From the NCBI RefSeq assembly GCF_050920415.1, contig NZ_CP169309.1: a stretch of DNA of 64,000 nucleotides; one strand, 5' to 3'. The DNA is from Escherichia coli (lineage in GTDB: Bacteria > Pseudomonadota > Gammaproteobacteria > Enterobacterales > Enterobacteriaceae). Every line of letters begins with the position of its first letter. Position 1 is the stretch's first letter. Both the position numbers and the translations under genes were made by a program. Below, piece by piece: positions 2,084 to 44,095 of this stretch. The notes beneath the pieces are model-generated. The model was not told the origin of the DNA, made no database searches, and saw only the letters and a program-made list of their open reading frames with translations.

Positions 2084-4924
2084 ATGAAGCCGCTCTCTTC
2101 ACCGTTACAGCAGTACTGGCAGACCGTTGTTGAGCGGCTGCCAGCGCCTTTAGCCGAGGAATCACTTAGTGCACAGGCGAAGTCAGTACTTACTTTTAGT
2201 GATTTTCTGCAGGACAGCATAATTGCGCATCCAGAGTGGCTGACGGAACTGGAAAGCCAACCGCCGCAGGCCGACGAATGGCAGCATTACACTGCATGGT
2301 TGCAGGAGGCGCTCAGTAATGTGAGTGACGAAGCCGGGTTAATGCGCGAGCTGCGGCTATTCCGGCGGCGCATTATGGTGCGCATCGCCTGGGCGCAAAC
2401 GCTGGCACTGGTTACTGAAGAGAGCATTTTGCAGCAGCTCAGTCATCTGGCGGAGACGCTGATTGTTGCGGCGCGTGACTGGCTGTATGACGCTTGCTGC
2501 CGCGAGTGGGGAACGCCGTGCAATGCGCAGGGCGAAGCGCAACCGCTGCTGATTTTAGGCATGGGTAAGCTGGGCGGTGGGGAGCTGAATTTCTCCTCAG
2601 ATATCGATCTGATTTTTGCCTGGCCGGAACATGGTTGCACGCAGGGCGGACGCAGGGAACTGGATAACGCTCAGTTCTTTACCCGCATGGGTCAGCGGCT
2701 GATTAAAGTGCTGGATCAACCAACGCAGGATGGCTTCGTCTATCGCGTGGATATGCGACTGCGTCCGTTTGGCGAAAGTGGCCCGCTGGTGCTGAGCTTT
2801 GCGGCACTGGAAGACTATTACCAGGAGCAGGGGCGCGACTGGGAGCGATACGCCATGGTCAAGGCGCGGATTATGGGCGATAGCGACGGCGTCTATGCTA
2901 ACGAGTTGCGTGCGATGCTGCGCCCGTTTGTTTTCCGCCGTTACATCGATTTCAGCGTGATCCAGTCGCTGCGCAACATGAAAGGAATGATTGCCCGTGA
3001 AGTGCGCCGACGCGGTTTGACCGACAACATCAAACTTGGCGCGGGTGGCATTCGCGAAATTGAATTTATCGTCCAGGTATTCCAGCTCATTCGCGGCGGG
3101 CGCGAACCGTCGCTGCAATCGCGCTCTTTACTGCCAACGCTCAGCGCCATTGCCGCGCTGCATCTGCTTTCTGAAAACGATGCTGAACAATTGCGAGTGG
3201 CGTATCTGTTCCTGCGGCGCCTGGAAAACCTGCTGCAAAGCATTAACGACGAACAAACCCAGACACTTCCTTCTGATGAGCTTAACCGTGCGCGGCTGGC
3301 GTGGGCGATGGACTTTGCTGACTGGCCGCAACTGACCGGGGCGCTGACCGGACATATGACCAATGTGCGCCGGGTGTTTAACGAATTGATTGGCGATGAC
3401 GAAAGCGAAACTCAGGAAGAGTCGCTGTCGGAACAGTGGCGTGAGCTGTGGCAGGATGCGTTGCAGGAAGATGACACTACGCCAGTACTGGCGCATCTTA
3501 GCGAAGATGATCGCAAACAGGTGCTAACACTGATTGCCGATTTCCGCAAAGAGCTGGATAAGCGCACAATCGGGCCGCGAGGACGTCAGGTGCTCGACCA
3601 TCTGATGCCGCATCTGCTAAGTGATGTCTGTGCGCGTGAAGACGCTGCTGTCACGCTGTCGCGCATTACCGCCTTGCTGGTGGGGATTGTTACCCGCACT
3701 ACCTATTTAGAATTGCTTAGTGAATTCCCCGCGGCGCTTAAGCATTTGATTTCTCTGTGTGCCGCATCGCCGATGATTGCCAGCCAACTGGCGCGTTATC
3801 CATTATTGCTGGACGAACTGCTCGATCCAAACACTCTCTACCAGCCGACGGCGACGGATGCCTACCGTGATGAACTGCGCCAGTATTTGCTGCGCGTGCC
3901 GGAAGATGACGAAGAGCAACAGCTTGAGGCGCTGCGTCAGTTCAAACAGGCGCAACTTTTACGCATCGCGGCGGCGGATATCGCCGGTACGCTACCGGTC
4001 ATGAAAGTGAGCGATCACTTAACCTGGCTGGCAGAAGCCATGATAGATGCTGTCGTACAACAGGCATGGGTTCAAATGGTTGCCCGCTACGGTAAGCCAA
4101 ATCACCTGAACGAACGCGAAGGGCGTGGTTTTGCGGTGGTCGGCTACGGCAAGCTGGGCGGCTGGGAGTTAGGCTACAGTTCCGATCTTGACCTGATCTT
4201 CCTCCATGATTGCCCAATGGATGCAATGACTGACGGCGAGCGGGAAATCGACGGACGACAGTTTTATCTGCGTCTGGCGCAACGCATTATGCATCTGTTC
4301 AGTACGCGCACCTCTTCCGGCATTTTGTATGAAGTGGATGCTCGACTGCGTCCGTCCGGGGCGGCGGGAATGCTGGTCACCTCTGCAGAAGCGTTTGCCG
4401 ATTATCAGAAAAACGAGGCCTGGACGTGGGAACATCAGGCGCTGGTGCGTGCGCGTGTAGTGTACGGCGATCCGCAGCTCACCGCGCACTTTGACGCGGT
4501 GCGTCGCGAGATTATGACGCTGCCGCGTGAAGGTAAAACTCTGCAAACGGAAGTGCGGGAAATGCGCGAGAAAATGCGCGCTCATCTCGGCAATAAACAT
4601 CGCGATCGCTTTGATATCAAAGCCGATGAAGGCGGAATTACCGATATCGAATTTATTACCCAATATCTGGTGTTGCGCTACGCTCATGAAAAACCGAAGT
4701 TAACGCGCTGGTCAGACAACGTGCGTATTCTGGAGCTGCTGGCGCAAAACGACATTATGGAAGAGCAGGAAGCGATGGTGCTGACCCGTGCTTACACTAC
4801 GCTGCGCGATGAACTTCATCATCTGGCATTACAGGAATTGCCGGGCCATGTGTCGGAGGATTGCTTCACCGCAGAGCGTGATCTGGTGCGGGCAAGCTGG
4901 CAGAAGTGGCTGGTGGAAGAATGA
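2084..4924 (+). CDS. glnE: Bifunctional glutamine synthetase adenylyltransferase / adenylyl-removing enzyme
   Basis: 946 aa from ATG 2084 (track ORF 1880.. is a 5' extension overlapping ygiF); duplicated nucleotidyltransferase motifs [18 protein letters not shown] and [18 protein letters not shown]. Confidence 0.95.
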
Positions 4925-36802: not shown

Positions 36803-36852
36803 TGGACCAATTCAATGCCCCACAGAGTGGTGGGGCGATACAAGGATGAATC

Positions 36853-38277
36853 ATGGATGGCATGGGATGGATGATTATTTTGGTACTTCCCTTTCTTTGG
36901 ATGGGCTATGGACTGGCGTTGTTAATCATAACGGGGTGCGCTTTTGAATCTAAGAGGATTCGTCGCATTCTGCTATGGGGTGTTGCGCCCCAGTTTATTA
37001 TTCTTTGTATTACGACCTTATTGCTTTATTGGATTAACTCTCGGTTAATTTATGTTTTTGTCTTTTTTCAGCCAGTTTTATGCATCACTACGGCAATTTT
37101 TTTGTTTGCTGGTAAAAAAACACAATATTCCAGATTGCTGTTTACTCTGTCTCATGTGATTTTTCTTGCTGGAGTTTTATATCAGGGGCATAGGGAAAAT
37201 CTGCAACACATAATTAATAGCGACTGGAAGGAATATAAAATAACGCGTTTATTTGAGCAAGTGCAGGACAATGGAGCGCATGCGCTGAATAACGATGTAA
37301 CTTGTTCAGAATTAATGCAACTACTCACCCTGGCAGCGGAACGTGATGACGTCAAAGAAGAGACGTTACGTACTCTTATTGCAAAGAGAGTATCGCCATT
37401 TCTGACAATGTCAGATAACTGTACGGGTGAGGATTCAGTAGAGATTTATTCTGTAGATACTACACCTTTTATGGCGGCTATTCAGAATCATAATATACAT
37501 TCTGTTCGTTTTTTTAGTCAATTGCTTATGGGAAACTCACCAAAAGCAAAAAATAATCGTGACATTGTGCGCCGGGCAAACCCTTTGATCGAAGTGTATA
37601 AATATAGTCATGGTTCAAAAAAACAACGTAACTCAGGGTTAGAAATAAGTAAGCAATTAATGGCTATTATGCCAGAACTATTAACAGATGCCGTCTGGCG
37701 TGCCGTGCTCAATGTATATGATGCCGATGCAGCACGATGGTTCTGGCGTAAGCAACCACCAGAAAATCGGTTGTATCGCTTAAAGGCTATGGCATTAATA
37801 CCACAAACAGATGCGCTGTTGGCAGAGATTCGACATACTCCAGAGGTACTGAATATCTCGTCTGAGGGGGACCTGAATGAAGAGGAGTTTCTCCATTTCT
37901 TAATTTATGGAGGAGATACCGCTGTAATACATGCACTGGTTGAAAAAGGAATAGTTAACTGGCAGCACCTTATGAACATTGAGGGGTTTGATAAGGACCC
38001 CTTAATATGGTCTATTTCAAAACTGGGAGAAAACGACAATGACCGGGAGGTTTTGGCATTAATTATTCATGATATTAATGCGCAAAACGCACTGCCGGAG
38101 GAACGCATTGCCAAATATTTAACGTGGACGGGAGCAATGGGCGAGATTTTTTTAAAGGCGGGCGTACATTGTGATAAGTTATATGCGGCAATTGAGTCCG
38201 ACAAAAAGCGAAATAATGGCATGTATAGTCAAAACGCCAGGGAAGAAGTGGATCGCGTATGTACGCCCACAAAATAG
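36853..38277 (+). CDS. Hypothetical polytopic membrane protein with C-terminal ankyrin-like repeats (accessory)
   Basis: 474-aa ORF; N-terminal ~110 aa with 3-4 hydrophobic helices; downstream motifs resembling ankyrin repeats (TPFMAAIQNHNIHSVRFFSQLL; DKDPLIWSISKLGENDNDREVLALIIHDINAQN); visibly AT-rich. Confidence 0.6.
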   Translation: MDGMGWMIILVLPFLWMGYGLALLIITGCAFESKRIRRILLWGVAPQFIILCITTLLLYWINSRLIYVFVFFQPVLCITTAIFLFAGKKTQYSRLLFTLSHVIFLAGVLYQGHRENLQHIINSDWKEYKITRLFEQVQDNGAHALNNDVTCSELMQLLTLAAERDDVKEETLRTLIAKRVSPFLTMSDNCTGEDSVEIYSVDTTPFMAAIQNHNIHSVRFFSQLLMGNSPKAKNNRDIVRRANPLIEVYKYSHGSKKQRNSGLEISKQLMAIMPELLTDAVWRAVLNVYDADAARWFWRKQPPENRLYRLKAMALIPQTDALLAEIRHTPEVLNISSEGDLNEEEFLHFLIYGGDTAVIHALVEKGIVNWQHLMNIEGFDKDPLIWSISKLGENDNDREVLALIIHDINAQNALPEERIAKYLTWTGAMGEIFLKAGVHCDKLYAAIESDKKRNNGMYSQNAREEVDRVCTPTK

Positions 38278-38295
38278 GAGCAGTTTGGGGCGGTT

Positions 38296-39213
38296 AAGGG
38301 ATAAAAAATAAATGCCTTTCGCTATCTGTCAGGGCGAATCTCACCATTTGCTATACCTTCCATTGGCGATGAACAGTATTCTACACGCACTTTTTTTACG
38401 ATTGCGTTGAAGCATTACAACGCCCGCGCCATCCGCGCGTTTAGCCGCTTTCTGCAAGGAAATTCCTCAAAAGCGTAGGAATATCGCGCGATTGTTCATC
38501 AAAAAAATCCACTGCAGCAGATGTACCGGGGAATAAGTTTGCCAATTCGTTTTAGTGAAGAAGAGATCGCCCGCCACATTGTTGCCGCTCGCGAGATAAG
38601 CCTCACCTTGCTGCCCCTGATGCCAGAATTATTAAACGAAGAGGCGTATGAAAATGTCATTGATGCTAATGACAGCGCAACGCTGAAGGCTTTTTGGCAG
38701 ATCCAGCTGCCGCCCACGCCGGTTTTACGCCTGGAAACGATGTCGGTAATTCCCATGACAGCGGCACTGGTTCAACAGGTGAGGGAGTCACCAAAGCGGC
38801 TTGAACTGGAAGATAAAAGTGGCAGGACAGTACTAACTTACATCGTGCGCTTTGGGAATATTGCCGCAGTACAGGCACTGATTGACGCTAATCTGATCGA
38901 CTGGCAACGGCTCCGCCAATCGACAGGAAGGTCAACACCATTATTACTGGCGATCTGGCGACAAAAATACGACGATGATTATGTAATCTTCCCATTGATT
39001 TTAAAGGACATGCTGGCAAAAAATGCGCCACCCTCAGCAGAGGAAATAATGAACTGCATTAAGGATGGTATGACCGCAGATGATTTTTTATCTGCCGGAA
39101 TGAGCAACACGCAATTCTGTTCTGCGATTGAACAAAGCCTCCAGGCGAAAACGTCAGTATTACCGGCGAATCGATTACGCCATCTGCAATCCTCGCGGTG
39201 TGCAAAGCTGTAA
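38296..39213 (+). pseudogene. 5'-truncated, amber-interrupted paralogue of the upstream ankyrin-like gene
   Basis: Track ORF 38521..39213 (230 aa) aligns to the C-terminal half of the 474-aa protein; the same frame upstream reads ...TRTFFTIALKHYNARAIRAFSRFLQGNSSKA-TAG(38476..38478)-EYRAIVHQKNPLQQ-M..., matching TPFMAAIQNHNIHSVRFFSQLLMGNSPKAKNNRDIVRRANPL of the full-length gene. Confidence 0.5.
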
Positions 39214-39328
39214 CCAACCGGAAGTTAAGTCATCCGCTGAAAACATCGCATTAACTTTTCGATTTCTCTTTCGTTCCGGCTTATAATCCCCGGCCTTTGA
39301 TTATTTTTTTATCATTTCTGGAAGCAAA

Positions 39329-41548
39329 ATGAGCTCTATCTCCCTGATCCAACCGGATCGCGACCTGTTCTCCTGGCCGCAGTACTGGGCCGCCTGTTTT
39401 GGACCGGCACCGTTTTTGCCGATGTCTCGTGAAGAGATGGATCAACTTGGCTGGGATAGCTGCGACATCATTTTGGTTACTGGCGACGCGTATGTCGATC
39501 ACCCAAGCTTCGGGATGGCGATTTGCGGTCGTATGCTGGAAGCGCAGGGCTTCCGTGTCGGGATCATCGCCCAGCCAGACTGGAGCAGCAAAGACGACTT
39601 TATGCGTCTGGGTAAACCGAATCTGTTTTTCGGTGTTACTGCTGGCAACATGGACTCGATGATCAACCGCTATACTGCCGATCGCCGTTTACGTCATGAC
39701 GATGCCTACACGCCGGATAACGTTGCGGGTAAGCGCCCGGATCGCGCCACACTGGTTTACACCCAACGTTGTAAAGAGGCGTGGAAAGATGTGCCGGTGA
39801 TCCTCGGCGGTATTGAGGCTAGTTTGCGTCGTACCGCGCATTATGATTACTGGTCTGATACCGTGCGCCGTTCCGTGCTGGTGGATTCCAAAGCCGACAT
39901 GCTGATGTTCGGTAACGGTGAGCGTCCGCTGGTGGAAGTGGCGCATCGTCTGGCGATGGGTGAGCCGATTAGTGAAATCCGCGATGTGCGTAATACTGCG
40001 ATTATCGTAAAAGAGGCGTTGCCAGGCTGGAGCGGCGTGGATTCCACCCGTCTCGATACCCCAGGGAAAATCGACCCGATCCCGCATCCGTATGGCGAAG
40101 ATCTGCCGTGCGCGGATAACAAACCTGTTGCGCCGAAAAAGCAGGAAGCGAAAGCCGTAACCGTGCAGCCGCCGCGCCCGAAACCGTGGGAAAAAACCTA
40201 CGTATTGCTGCCTTCTTTCGAGAAAGTGAAGGGCGATAAAGTGCTGTACGCCCATGCTTCGCGCATTCTGCACCACGAAACCAACCCTGGCTGCGCCCGC
40301 GCATTGATGCAAAAACACGGCGACCGCTATGTGTGGATCAACCCGCCTGCTATCCCGCTTTCTACCGAAGAGATGGACAGCGTCTTTGCGCTGCCGTACA
40401 AGCGCGTGCCGCATCCGGCTTACGGTAATGCCCGAATTCCGGCTTACGAAATGATCCGTTTCTCGGTCAACATTATGCGTGGCTGCTTTGGCGGCTGCTC
40501 TTTCTGCTCTATTACCGAGCATGAAGGTCGCATTATTCAGAGCCGTTCGGAAGATTCGATCATCAACGAGATTGAAGCGATCCGCGACACCGTGCCAGGC
40601 TTTACGGGCGTGATTTCCGATCTCGGTGGGCCAACTGCCAACATGTATATGTTGCGCTGCAAATCGCCGCGCGCCGAGCAGACTTGCCGCCGTTTATCGT
40701 GCGTTTACCCGGATATTTGTCCTCATATGGACACTAACCACGAACCGACGATCAACCTCTATCGCCGCGCGCGTGATCTGAAAGGCATTAAAAAGATCCT
40801 CATCGCTTCCGGCGTGCGTTATGATATCGCCGTGGAAGATCCGCGCTATATCAAAGAGCTGGCGACCCATCACGTTGGCGGTTATCTGAAGATTGCCCCG
40901 GAACATACCGAAGAAGGGCCGTTATCGAAGATGATGAAGCCGGGCATGGGCAGCTATGACCGCTTTAAAGAGCTGTTCGATACTTACTCGAAACAGGCAG
41001 GTAAAGAGCAATATCTGATCCCGTATTTCATCTCCGCACACCCGGGTACGCGTGATGAAGATATGGTGAATCTGGCGCTGTGGCTGAAAAAGCATCGCTT
41101 CCGTCTCGACCAGGTACAGAACTTCTACCCGTCGCCGTTGGCTAACTCCACCACCATGTATTACACCGGGAAAAACCCGCTGGCGAAGATTGGTTACAAG
41201 AGTGAAGACGTCTTCGTACCGAAGGGCGACAAACAGCGTCGTTTGCATAAAGCGTTGTTGCGTTACCACGATCCGGCAAACTGGCCGTTAATCCGTCAGG
41301 CGCTGGAAGCGATGGGTAAAAAGCATCTGATTGGCAGCCGTCGTGATTGCTTAGTGCCTGCGCCAACCATTGAAGAGATGCGCGAAGCCCGCCGTCAGAA
41401 CCGCAATACCCGTCCGGCGTTGACTAAACATACGCCGATGGCGACCCAGCGTCAGACACCTGCTACGGCAAAAAAAGCGTCGTCTACGCCATCTCGCCCG
41501 GTGAATGCTGGCGCGAAGAAACGCCCTAAAGCGGTGGCAGGTCGTTAA
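39329..41548 (+). CDS. ygiQ: Radical SAM protein YgiQ (UPF0313)
   Basis: 739-aa ORF; CxxxCxxC-type radical SAM cluster region ([10 protein letters not shown]). Confidence 0.9.
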
Positions 41549-41586
41549 GTGAAATGTGCCCGGCAGCAATGATGCTGCCGGGAAAT

Positions 41587-41817
41587 TTATAACCTTGGTT
41601 TATAAGGACTGTTACGAACGTCTAAGCGGTAATGCGCTCTTGCTGTTTCGTCTTTAACTTGCTGAATTTCCGGACGCAGGGCGTCAATATCCTGTTGCAG
41701 TTGATTAATTTTGTTATTCAATGCCTGAATATCATGTTCCAGGTGTTCAATTTTGGCATTGCTGGTACAGCCAGCAAGACACAGCGCCAGCGGAATGGAT
41801 AAGATAAGTTTGTTCAT
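41587..41817 (-). CDS. Lpp-like small lipoprotein (Braun lipoprotein paralogue)
   Basis: About 76 aa from MNKLILSIPLALCLAGC (lipobox LAGC); mature part CTSNAKIEHLEHDIQALNNKINQLQQDIDALRPEIQQVKDETARAHYRLD resembles Lpp heptad repeats. Confidence 0.6.
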   Translation of the reverse strand: MNKLILSIPLALCLAGCTSNAKIEHLEHDIQALNNKINQLQQDIDALRPEIQQVKDETARAHYRLDVRNSPYKPRL

Positions 41818-41834
41818 TATGAATTCCAGAACCG

Positions 41835-42092
41835 TCATTCCGCATACATACGTAAGCAGCGCAGGCAATCGAAATAGTCCTGGGCGTCAAGGCGCGTATT
41901 GGCTCTGTTAGCGTCGGATTTGGCAGCATAGATTTGCGGGCGTAATGCTTTCATATCCTGCTCAAGTCGGGCAATTTTGGCATTTAACGTCTGTACGTTG
42001 CTCGCCAGCTGATTGACCTTTTGCTCATTGACGCAGCCGCTGAGCAAGCAGGTTGCCAGAACAACAGCCCCCACGGTGAAAATCGTTTTCAT
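41835..42092 (-). CDS. yqhH: Lpp-like outer membrane lipoprotein
   Basis: 85-aa ORF, lipobox LSGC, Lpp-like heptad region [32 protein letters not shown]. Confidence 0.75.
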
Positions 42093-42141
42093 ATAGTATT
42101 CCCTTTTATTTATTGTTCCGACTAATTGTTATTTAATTCAG

Positions 42142-43068
42142 CTATTGCTTTAATCTGGCGGCGGTTTTTGCCTCAATTTGCTTAAGTAGGCTGCCGCTGT
42201 TCGGGCGGATAAAATCAGCGATTTCCCACTTACCTTCGCGCCGCTGTAAAACCAGTTCTTGCTCTTCGTTGTTGCCATTGGTCAGCGTAAAACGAACATG
42301 AATGCGGGCGGAATCGGTGGTTTTCTCCAGGACACGGATTTCATCAACGCGTGAAAATAGCGACTCTTCGCCAAAACAGATCGGATTGTCGTAAATAAAT
42401 TGCCGTTCTATTTGCATATCTTCATCGGGATTGTTGGCAGTCTTGAAGGTGGTTTTATAGAAGGCATTGACCGCCTGGCGGTAAGAGTCGGAAACCACCC
42501 ACGTCCACGGCCAGCTATAATCAGCAATATGTTCAAAGAGTTCGGCAACAAAGGCTTCCGGCTGTTCTTTTTGCAACGAAGCTATAGCTACCAGCGTTTT
42601 TTCATTCTCGCTATTAACTGCTTGTAAGACGCTGCCATGATTGCTGACAATATCGTCAATGACCCAACGACCATTTTCCGCCACCATTTTCAGTGTCTGC
42701 GTGGTCTTTTCTTTATCGTCTTTAAAGATACGAAAGCGCACAACGGCATCGGCATGATCGGCGTCAGGTTGGGTTATCGCTACGCTTTCTAACACCAGAT
42801 CGCCAAAATCCTGACAATCACAAACTGGATCATAATCCAGCCAGCCAATATTGCCCGGCAGCGTAAGATTGTCGTTCAGGGTAAGCGCCTGTTGAATACG
42901 CGCAGAAGTTATCGCTCGCTCTCCGGTTTCACCAAAATAAGGCGTACTGGCATCTGATTTATAGTTCTGATAAATCTGCCGGACTGTTTGTTCTACGGTC
43001 TGTGAAGGAGGCTGCGCGTGTACGGTAAAACTTGCCAGGGCTGCTAAAAACAGAAGTATTATTTTCAT
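42142..43068 (-). CDS. yqhG: DUF3828 periplasmic protein
   Basis: 308-aa ORF with signal peptide. Confidence 0.8.
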   Translation of the reverse strand: MKIILLFLAALASFTVHAQPPSQTVEQTVRQIYQNYKSDASTPYFGETGERAITSARIQQALTLNDNLTLPGNIGWLDYDPVCDCQDFGDLVLESVAITQPDADHADAVVRFRIFKDDKEKTTQTLKMVAENGRWVIDDIVSNHGSVLQAVNSENEKTLVAIASLQKEQPEAFVAELFEHIADYSWPWTWVVSDSYRQAVNAFYKTTFKTANNPDEDMQIERQFIYDNPICFGEESLFSRVDEIRVLEKTTDSARIHVRFTLTNGNNEEQELVLQRREGKWEIADFIRPNSGSLLKQIEAKTAARLKQ

Positions 43069-43267
43069 CTGTTTTTCACCTCTCCGTTGCGTTCATCCCG
43101 GATGTAAATGAGTTGTTCCTTTAAGAGCTTCCGGCTCTGCATGATGATGCCCTTATATTTGGCGTTCCTGAACAAGGAAGAGTAACAATGGGCGTGACGC
43201 GAGGGGAATAAATGATTTCTGAAAAGTCCGGTAGCGGAACATTACCGCCACCGGAAGAATTTGCGCG

Positions 43268-44095
43268 TTAGCCGCCGAACTGGTCGGGATCGGGGCCGAG
43301 GCGTTTGCCCTGGTCGAGTTTGGCAATTTCACCTAGCTCGTCTTTGTCGAGACGGAAATCCCAGACATCAAAGTTTTCGGCAATACGTGAAGGTGTGACC
43401 GATTTCGGGATCACCACCAGGCCGTTATCCAGATGCCAGCGGATAACAATCTGCGCCGGGGTTTTGCCGTATTTATCTGCCAGATCGCGAATGACTTTCT
43501 GATCGAAAACGCCTTTCCCTCCTTGCGCTAATGGGCTCCAGGATTCGGTCTGGATTTTGTGTGTCGCGTTCCAGGCGTGAAGCTGGCGTTGCTGCATCAG
43601 CGGGTGGAGTTCAATCTGGTTTATCACCGGCGTCACGCCAGTTTCATCAATCAGGCGTTGCAGGTGGTGGATCTGGAAGTTGCACACGCCGATGCTTTTG
43701 ATTAAGCCCTCTTTTTGCAATTCGATCATGCCCTTCCATGCTTCGACATAATGGTCGATAGCAGGAACGGGCCAGTGCATTAAGTAAAGGTCGACATAAT
43801 CAAGCTGGAGTTTTTTCAGGCTGTCGAGCAGGGCTTCGCGGGGGCGCTTGTGGTCGTCGTTCCACAGTTTAGTGGTGATGAACAGTTCTTCTCTGTTAAC
43901 TGAGGCATTTTTCAGGGCTTTGCCGACACCTTCTTCGTTCTTATAGGCCGCGGCGGTATCAATCGAGCGATAACCCACGTCTAACGCTTTTTGAATGGCA
44001 GTGATTACTTCCTCATTACTTGCTTGCCAGACGCCCAGTCCCAGCTGGGGCATGACATTGCCATCCTGTAGCTTAATAACGGTTGGATTAGCCAT
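43268..44095 (-). CDS. dkgA: Aldo-keto reductase (2,5-diketo-D-gluconate / methylglyoxal reductase)
   Basis: 275-aa ORF, AKR family sequence recognised. Confidence 0.9.
   Translation of the reverse strand: MANPTVIKLQDGNVMPQLGLGVWQASNEEVITAIQKALDVGYRSIDTAAAYKNEEGVGKALKNASVNREELFITTKLWNDDHKRPREALLDSLKKLQLDYVDLYLMHWPVPAIDHYVEAWKGMIELQKEGLIKSIGVCNFQIHHLQRLIDETGVTPVINQIELHPLMQQRQLHAWNATHKIQTESWSPLAQGGKGVFDQKVIRDLADKYGKTPAQIVIRWHLDNGLVVIPKSVTPSRIAENFDVWDFRLDKDELGEIAKLDQGKRLGPDPDQFGG

Follow-up and report, generated by a model that had tools for sequence, protein, structure and literature searches.

Gene order and features of the ygiQ-yqhD region

The window (the whole stretch of 64,000 nucleotides of Escherichia coli contig NZ_CP169309.1 that was analysed) contains, in this order, ftsP, a 2.45-kb insert, ygiQ (plus strand), the minus-strand genes gene2, yqhH, yqhG and dkgA, and yqhD. 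The locus is 100% identical to that of E. coli strain MFDS1022581 (NZ_CP169399.1). The gene considered here, which we call gene2, lies between yqhH and the 3' end of ygiQ, with the following features around it:

39329..41548, plus strand: ygiQ (radical SAM), the convergent neighbour of gene2
41559..41582, no strand assigned: G+C-rich hairpin CCCGGCAGC-ATCATT-GCTGCCGGG, found by folding, between the convergent stops of gene2 and ygiQ
41566..41834, no strand assigned: segment missing from K-12, delimited by BLAST breakpoints and comprising gene2, the spacer and part of the hairpin
41587..41817, minus strand: gene2, encoding a 76-aa Lpp-family lipoprotein; the PGAP coding sequence at the same place is WP_001037461.1
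41818..41838, minus strand: the 17-nt spacer between yqhH and gene2, together with an alternative ATG at 41838-41836, from reading of the sequence
41835..42092, minus strand: yqhH, whose 85-aa product is an Lpp paralogue (lipobox LSGC) with Cys in its C-terminus; the gene has this name in K-12 and in every matching genome
42142..43068, minus strand: yqhG (DUF3828; YbjP/YqhG or YqhG/Tai3 family), with a Pfam DUF3828 score of 153.5 bits

The first-pass annotation had described two adjacent minus-strand ORFs with the lipoboxes LAGC and LSGC at this position. Both ORFs were found at their coordinates, and both motifs, LSGC in YqhH and LAGC in gene2, fit the consensus [LVI][ASTVI][GAS]C. It had also given yqhH as the only such gene named here in K-12, which agrees with the K-12 annotation, and had raised the idea of an unnamed small gene between ygiQ and yqhH in that strain, which does not exist. 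The yqhH gene of K-12 MG1655 ends at 3,158,884 and ygiQ at 3,158,927, with a 42-bp gap between them that contains a hairpin only. When the window was compared with K-12 by BLAST, homology was lost right after the yqhH stop (41835) and regained at 41565, 17 nt past the ygiQ stop, so that positions 41566-41834 of the window (269 bp) stand in place of 27 bp in K-12. A hidden, unannotated K-12 gene is ruled out by the 42 bp between yqhH and ygiQ and by the lack of homologous DNA there; gene2 is a rare accessory gene, and the segment is absent from 5,408 of 5,426 complete E. coli genomes.

The yqhG gene is located upstream of yqhH on the same strand, 49 bp apart, and the two may belong to one operon. 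Neither a hairpin or terminator nor a promoter-like site was found in the spacer between yqhH and gene2, and a consensus promoter scan of positions 41300-43400 gave no match; gene2 is likely co-transcribed with yqhH. On its other side, the hairpin at 41559-41582 has a fold energy of -22.3 kcal/mol (z = -5.2 against shuffled sequences in RNA folding), and was missed by a consensus terminator scan because its U-tract is weak. Comparable hairpins are found 3' of the Salmonella gene2 orthologue and 3' of yqhH in K-12, and this one is probably a terminator common to gene2 and ygiQ.

Three start codons were considered for gene2, whose ORF has its stop end at 41587. The longest mechanical form begins at TTG 41868 and has 93 aa; ATG 41838, which overlaps the yqhH stop as ATGA, gives 83 aa and is chosen by some gene callers (proteins P0001 and P0064); and ATG 41817, the PGAP start, gives 76 aa with the N-terminus MNKLILSIPLALCLAGC. 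For the orthologue on Logan contig L003, the ATG is preceded by AGGAGG at 8 nt and no further in-frame start occurs upstream, and the ATG of the Salmonella orthologue is preceded by AAGGAA. The proteins of gene2, L003 and Salmonella all begin with MN[KN]. Since the L003 gene lacks an upstream start and the orthologues begin with MN[KN] after a Shine-Dalgarno sequence, ATG 41817 was taken as the start, and on the same evidence the 93-aa and 83-aa forms are less likely. The Shine-Dalgarno sequence before ATG 41817 is weak (GGA only), while strong ones precede the conserved ATG in the orthologues.

The gene2 protein as a member of the Lpp family

The signal peptide of gene2 (MNKLILSIPLALCLAG) is short, with 16 residues followed by Cys17 as the lipidation residue. 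The lipobox varies to LVGC, LSGC and LASC in the other gene2 allele and in the orthologues, with the Cys unchanged throughout. Gene2, which has Cys or Tyr at position -4, does not match the older, strict lipoprotein pattern of PROSITE, and the n-region of the L003 orthologue contains no Lys or Arg. Judged by sequence, gene2 has a lipoprotein signal peptide with an L-A-G-C lipobox. Asp at position +2 of a mature lipoprotein is a signal for Lol avoidance; this residue is Thr in gene2 and Ser in the orthologues, so no such signal is present. The mature gene2 protein has 60 residues and ends in NSPYKPRL (example mature peptide: IEHLEHDIQALNNK).

The mature regions of both proteins had been described as Lpp-like, and profile searches and alignments concur. 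Both exceed the gathering score of Pfam PF04728 (LPP; 29.1 bits), with 42.1 bits for gene2 and 46.2 bits for YqhH. Residues 17-73 of gene2 (57 residues) can be aligned with the mature Lpp chains 9rld and 1eq7 of the PDB with no gap (E = 3e-13 to 4e-12). The comparison with Lpp and YqhH that had been proposed gave 47% identity to Lpp and 39% to YqhH. None of three curated NCBIfam cut-offs is reached by gene2: it scored 71.4 bits against NF011925 (major outer membrane lipoprotein Lpp; cut-off 108), 53.8 bits against NF007428 (YqhH equivalog; cut-off 120), for which the neighbouring yqhH scored 196.9 bits, and 36.2 bits against NF040598 (Lpp/OprI alanine zipper; cut-off 43). Gene2 is an ordinary, uncharacterised and strain-variable representative of a well-known family and carries an annotation already.

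The similarity to Lpp extends to the L-A-G-C lipobox, the start of the mature protein (C-[ST]-S-N-A-K-I), the heptad core and a predicted single long helix, and the mature lengths are close (60 residues in gene2, 58 in Lpp). At the 14 a/d core positions of the Lpp-56 structure, the residues of gene2 are I L I L I L I L I V T A L R and those of Lpp are I L V L V L V M V A A A L M, so that 12 of these positions are still hydrophobic in gene2. An AlphaFold2 monomer model, built from a 10-sequence alignment, predicted a single helix from residue 3 to residue 68 (pLDDT 90-98 for residues 21-60), followed by a non-helical stretch of the last eight residues (69-76, NSPYKPRL). Differences from Lpp include the alanine-zipper changes A38 to V and A42 to T, and a Pro in the ALRP motif (mature P33, midway along the predicted coiled coil) in place of Lpp S33; the modelled monomer helix runs through P33, and the same Pro is found in YqhH. 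The two also differ in standing, since Lpp is a core, highly expressed protein and gene2 is a rare accessory gene.

The other difference is at the C-terminus, where Lpp ends in YRK and gene2 in YKPRL. [quoted passage not shown] The first-pass reading that the downstream protein ends without this canonical Lys holds, since Lpp K58 aligns with P74 of gene2. Both types of orthologue end in SPFSPRL, with no Lys there at all, and gene2 and its orthologues share a conserved non-helical tail, SP[YF]xPRL. YqhH also lacks a terminal Lys, and on these C-terminal residues both gene2 and YqhH are predicted not to be cross-linked to peptidoglycan.

A covalent link to peptidoglycan could be imagined through the near-terminal Lys73 of the E. 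coli protein (YKPRL), which is four residues from the C-terminus and aligns with Lpp R57, one position before K58. We consider it highly unlikely that the protein is attached in this way: both types of orthologue have Ser instead of this Lys, Pro-Arg-Leu comes after it, and Lpp attachment is described, in the passages searched of a recent preprint, as occurring via the C-terminal lysine (bioRxiv 10.1101/2025.11.13.688167).

The proposal of a diverged paralogue with altered anchoring is therefore only partly sustained. The missing Lys agrees with it, but YqhH lacks the Lys too, so that altered anchoring applies to both genes alike, and gene2 is closer to Lpp than to YqhH. YqhH (K-12 b3014) adjoins gene2 on the same strand and is likewise an Lpp-family lipoprotein with ALRP and no terminal Lys. 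It differs in its longer tail with two Cys (DYFDCLRCL...), whereas gene2 has only the lipidated Cys and ends in PRL. They differ also in abundance: almost every one of the 5,426 E. coli genomes was found to contain yqhH, against 0.3% for gene2.

Distribution, orthologues and origin of gene2

The gene2 segment was found in 18 of the 5,426 complete E. coli genomes, always on the chromosome and with 98.4-100% identity; strains MFDS1022581, 2013C-4282 and WL297 are among the carriers. PGAP annotates it in all 18 carriers as 'LPP leucine zipper domain-containing protein', under two accessions that correspond to two protein alleles, WP_001037461.1 (LCLAGC) and WP_001037462.1 (LYLVGC). These differ in the signal peptide only, and five E. 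coli copies that were compared had one and the same mature sequence. Within a collection of 15 billion proteins, the exact 76-aa protein occurs on 918 contigs and the 83-aa call of gene2 on 617, with deposited names such as 'murein-lipoprotein [E. coli MS 78-1]' and 'Major outer membrane lipoprotein Lpp'. The gene is rare but has long been deposited, and is not new to RefSeq.

A tblastn search of plasmids and phages returned no copy of gene2, only Lpp or YqhH at no more than 46% identity, and a search with PADLOC models gave only generic coiled-coil noise (E ~2e-4 or weaker). A mobile, phage or defence origin of gene2 was rejected on these two results.

A word-indexed protein search with gene2 returned 3 proteins, and an exhaustive HMMER scan of 1.84 billion cluster representatives gave 60 matches at E <= 0.001. 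Beyond its own cluster and one frameshifted or truncated orthologue (P0004), these were mostly ordinary Lpp-family proteins with roughly 30-54% identity, and a few long coiled-coil proteins. Orthologues with 71% identity were found in two places, on contig L003 (protein P0002) and in Salmonella enterica. The gene order on L003 is dkgA, a CarboxypepD_reg lipoprotein on the opposite strand, gene2 and convergent ygiQ; this contig is probably from another genus, because its dkgA DNA is 84% identical to that of E. coli. On the S. enterica contigs L006 and L007 (assembly GCA_005550495.1), gene2 follows a gene for an Lpp-like protein (P0023, ending ...CYHPPRL) and is convergent with ygiQ. Two sequence variants of the Salmonella orthologue each occur on at least 1,000 contigs, and on contig L005, which has the Salmonella-type gene order, the copy of gene2 is frameshifted. 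All copies of gene2 are convergent with the 3' end of ygiQ, and the orthologue loci do not contain yqhH.

Two pattern scans of 100,044 GTDB species-representative genomes detected no gene2 orthologue, and returned only 82-aa relatives from E. whittamii and Escherichia sp. E1V33 and one spurious match in Thermoleophilia. As no GTDB species-representative genome carries it, gene2 is accessory in Salmonella too. The dN/dS values between gene2 of the window and its orthologues were 0.20-0.23 (dS 0.72-0.81), indicating purifying selection. The dS of ygiQ between the window and Salmonella was 1.09, of the same order as the 0.72 of gene2, which fits orthology of gene2 at this site going back roughly to the separation of Escherichia and Salmonella. 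In other genera, too, the ORF is unbroken, lies in the same synteny and evolves under purifying selection, and so gene2 can be regarded as a real gene rather than a chance ORF. At the same time it is dispensable, given its loss from most E. coli, its absence from the GTDB species representatives and its frameshift on one Salmonella-type contig. The first-pass annotation would have been contradicted by a lack of conservation or by annotation of both genes in K-12; orthologues are conserved and K-12 is without gene2.

The same rarity could be read as the trace of a decaying remnant, a pseudogene of an ancestral Lpp paralogue that is no longer expressed in E. coli. The restriction to 18 of the 5,426 complete E. 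coli genomes, the absence from all GTDB species representatives, the weak Shine-Dalgarno sequence of the E. coli copy, the frameshifted orthologue on the Salmonella-type contig and a metagenomic gene2 variant with a 14-aa deletion are all compatible with decay. However, the ORF is intact in every carrier checked and annotated by PGAP in 18 of 18, dN/dS is 0.2 across genera, the E. coli alleles differ only in the signal peptide, where the change from LAGC to LVGC leaves the lipobox valid, and the gene is intact on thousands of Salmonella contigs, making a remnant improbable.

It had also been implicit in the first-pass annotation that gene2 is a recent derivative of yqhH. The two genes are in tandem, 17 nt apart, and share ALRP, with Pro at the equivalent of Lpp S33, and the absence of a terminal Lys, as a tandem duplicate that diverged in place would. 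Against this, gene2 is 39% identical to YqhH and 47% to Lpp, its score of 53.8 falls below the YqhH equivalog cut-off of 120, and orthologues of gene2 are found beside ygiQ in S. enterica and on L003, where yqhH and yqhG are absent. A recent duplication of yqhH was rejected on the identities and on these orthologues, and we give it very little credence; because the orthologues occur without yqhH, any common origin of gene2 and yqhH would predate the divergence of these genera.

How gene2 came to be in so few E. coli genomes is a separate question. When genomes are ranked by their match to the flanking yqhG-dkgA-yqhD segment, the top 18 (98.2-100% identity) are precisely the 18 carriers, and the genome ranked after them has 97.7%, indicating that gene2 goes with a distinct haplotype. 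The ygiQ gene is unusually polymorphic: the window differs from K-12 by a dS of 0.24 and from E. whittamii by a dS of 0.30, with mosaic mismatch profiles. The GC content is 42% in gene2, 51-55% in ygiQ, yqhH, dkgA and yqhD, and 47% in yqhG.

The most economical reading is that gene2 predates the separation of Escherichia and Salmonella, disappeared from most E. coli and was kept on a divergent haplotype, and this ancestral presence with widespread loss is favoured because the position is conserved across genera. Import of gene2 with a divergent dkgA-ygiQ block, by homologous recombination from an Escherichia or other enterobacterial donor, is possible but less probable; it is an alternative for the origin only. 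The coincidence of carriers with the best flank matches and the drop to 97.7% would be expected from such an import, as would the mosaic ygiQ, whose dS from K-12 is near that from E. whittamii, and the low GC of gene2. The flank pattern, however, is also expected from one clonal lineage retaining an ancestral gene, and the low GC may come from a composition rich in Asn, Lys, Ile and Gln. No donor was found, gene2 being present in no GTDB species-representative genome, and the closest orthologues outside E. coli are only 71% identical.

The ygiQ gene is a conserved anchor for genes of this kind, since gene2-type and related Lpp paralogues adjoin it in every genus examined. The order in E. whittamii and Escherichia sp. 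E1V33 is yqhG, a gene for an 82-aa lipoprotein ending in HPPRW, yqhH and convergent ygiQ, and database members of the 82-aa protein cluster come from E. ruysiae and unclassified Escherichia. Contig L017 has the E. whittamii-type order with a protein ending in NPPRY, contig L008 has dkgA, a HIT-family gene, the gene for P0016 (ending HPPR) and convergent ygiQ, and other Lpp paralogues are located beside ygiQ on L021 and beside dkgA on L022. The ygiQ-proximal interval thus contains a variable set of one to three Lpp paralogues, of which K-12 has only yqhH.

The paralogues with PPR[LWY] tails (the 82-aa proteins of E. whittamii, E. ruysiae and cryptic Escherichia clades, and the Salmonella proteins P0023, P0016 and P0009) resemble gene2 in being Lpp-like lipoproteins without a terminal Lys, with a Pro-Arg plus hydrophobic or aromatic end, encoded between dkgA or yqhG and ygiQ. 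Their identity to gene2 is only 37-56%, their tails are longer, e.g. RWPDGIWAHPPRW, and their genes in Escherichia lie upstream of yqhH, whereas gene2 lies downstream of it. Many proteins of the interval end in Pro-Arg-[Leu/Trp/Tyr], a likeness that homology and convergence would both give.

Proposed function and significance

Taken together, gene2 is best regarded, with a probability of about 0.7, as a genuine gene of the chromosome that encodes a small Lpp-family lipoprotein of the outer membrane, an old paralogue rather than a new copy of yqhH. Translation would probably begin at ATG 41817, on a transcript joint with yqhH. From established lipoprotein biology, the precursor would be processed by Lgt, LspA and Lnt at Cys17, and the protein would be taken to the outer membrane by the Lol pathway, a sorting expected from a +2 residue of Thr or Ser instead of Asp. 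In that membrane it would form an Lpp-like parallel trimeric coiled coil projecting into the periplasm. Since the acceptor Lys is missing, it should not be linked to meso-DAP by LdtA/B/C, and would be an Lpp that exists in the free form only.

The best functional analogy for gene2 is Salmonella LppB, the second, tandemly encoded Lpp paralogue of the lppA-lppB pair, which in the searched passages of the same preprint forms heterotrimers with Lpp and reduces cross-linking (bioRxiv 10.1101/2025.11.13.688167). The paralogues named in those passages are LppA and LppB of Salmonella and YqhH of E. coli, and the passages contain no mention of ygiQ-adjacent paralogues (bioRxiv 10.1101/2025.11.13.688167). 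LppB differs from gene2 in keeping a terminal Lys with a Cys beside it, and in being encoded at the lpp locus and not at ygiQ. By this analogy, gene2 might mix into Lpp or YqhH trimers and lower tethering to the wall, and so it may, speculatively, tune Lpp tethering; alternatively, its PRL tail might bind another periplasmic partner.

A broader idea, which we hold to be doubtful, is that the interval between dkgA or yqhG and ygiQ could be a conserved enterobacterial site for variable tandem arrays of non-cross-linkable Lpp paralogues, with Cys tails in the YqhH type and Pro-Arg-[Leu/Trp/Tyr] tails in gene2 and the 82-aa type. Such proteins would be strain-variable, dominant-negative modulators that co-assemble with Lpp trimers and set the stapling of the outer membrane to the wall, and the PR[LWY]-COOH tail would dock a periplasmic partner. 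If this were true, vesiculation, envelope stiffness and sensitivity to phages or antibiotics would be affected.

Current understanding is not overturned by gene2, which already has a domain-based name in RefSeq. It is a third, strain-variable Lpp paralogue in E. coli, with orthologues that are common in Salmonella, and the ygiQ-adjacent locus is shown to house a changing set of Lpp paralogues. Attention is only now turning to paralogues that are not linkable to the wall (YqhH and, in part, LppB) as possible tuners of the link between Lpp and the wall, and gene2, as a natural Lys-less variant of Lpp, would offer a small and clean test of whether such a paralogue poisons Lpp tethering.

Divergence and possible recombination around yqhH and ygiQ

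The genes and the insert compared in the window were as follows.

36804-39256, 2.45-kb insert between ftsP and ygiQ (43.8% GC)
36853-38277, insert ORF of 474 aa, annotated 'membrane protein' (WP_000348902.1)
38521-39213, insert ORF of 230 aa, hypothetical
39329-41548 (+), ygiQ
41587-41817 (-), gene2, the Lpp-family lipoprotein gene between yqhH and ygiQ
41835-42092 (-), yqhH
42142-43068 (-), yqhG

Comparison of yqhH between the window and L015, the locus of another gene2 carrier, showed 15 synonymous and no non-synonymous changes (dS 0.33), so that both encode the same YqhH protein (WP_000848523.1). About a dozen of the 15 changes were private to the window in the alignment of five carriers. 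The neighbouring gene2 sequences of the window and L015 were identical, and the 41400-42300 region was found at 99% identity or more in only two of 5,426 genomes. Taken together, these patterns of sequence variation suggest that a recombination event had its breakpoint between the two genes and that YqhH is very strongly constrained.

The ygiQ gene was also unusually divergent within E. coli, with a dS of 0.24 between the window and K-12, close to the value obtained against E. whittamii (0.30). The YgiQ protein was nearly unaltered (dN 0.002), and the mismatch profiles of ygiQ were mosaic across the carriers. The insert on the other side of ygiQ was missing from K-12 and from four other strains that carry gene2. 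Both of its ORFs produced ankyrin-repeat matches below threshold and nothing else, and a PADLOC search gave no match for either of them.

Lpp-like genes in related genomes and phages

In Salmonella enterica GCA_005550495.1 (L006 and L007, 1-9 and 4001-4252), the neighbourhood of ygiQ contains as many as three Lpp-like genes, none of which is the familiar lppA or lppB. They comprise a gene2 orthologue, an LPP gene of 77 or 84 aa located upstream of an Amidohydro_3 gene, and a gene for an 83-aa protein (P0023) with two Cys and the C-terminus HPPRL. Contig L005, which shares the Salmonella-type gene order of L006, contains a frameshifted gene2 orthologue (4001-4227), in which residues 1-55 and 49-76 lie in separate frames, leaving a truncated 64-aa product (P0004).

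An E. coli-type gene2 variant (P0003) with a 14-residue in-frame deletion, NKINQLQQDIDALR, was encoded on an ENA metagenome contig (L004, 121-330). The deletion spans exactly two heptads and would therefore keep the coiled-coil register, but it may be an assembly artefact, since the coverage of this contig is very low (1.18).

An additional Lpp-like lipoprotein, 82 aa long and distinct from the gene2 product, has the tail RWPDGIWAHPPRW or similar. It is encoded between yqhG and yqhH in E. whittamii (L010, 4001-4249), Escherichia sp. E1V33 (L011, 3959-4207) and another enterobacterium (L017, 3501-3749). This gene is upstream of yqhH, whereas gene2 is downstream.

Lpp homologues with 36-42% identity to gene2 are also encoded by large Salmonella, Cronobacter and Erwinia phages (records H61-H72), such as Salmonella phage PVPSE1 (GU070616.1) and Erwinia phage FBB1 (MT920315.1), some of them annotated as 'major outer membrane lipoprotein'.

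Naming of yqhG and a candidate role for the cluster

Some current RefSeq records name the yqhG product 'YqhG/Tai3 family protein'. Tai3 denotes proteins that confer immunity to the amidase effectors of type VI secretion. It is conceivable that the yqhG-yqhH(-gene2) cluster as a whole has a wall-related role.
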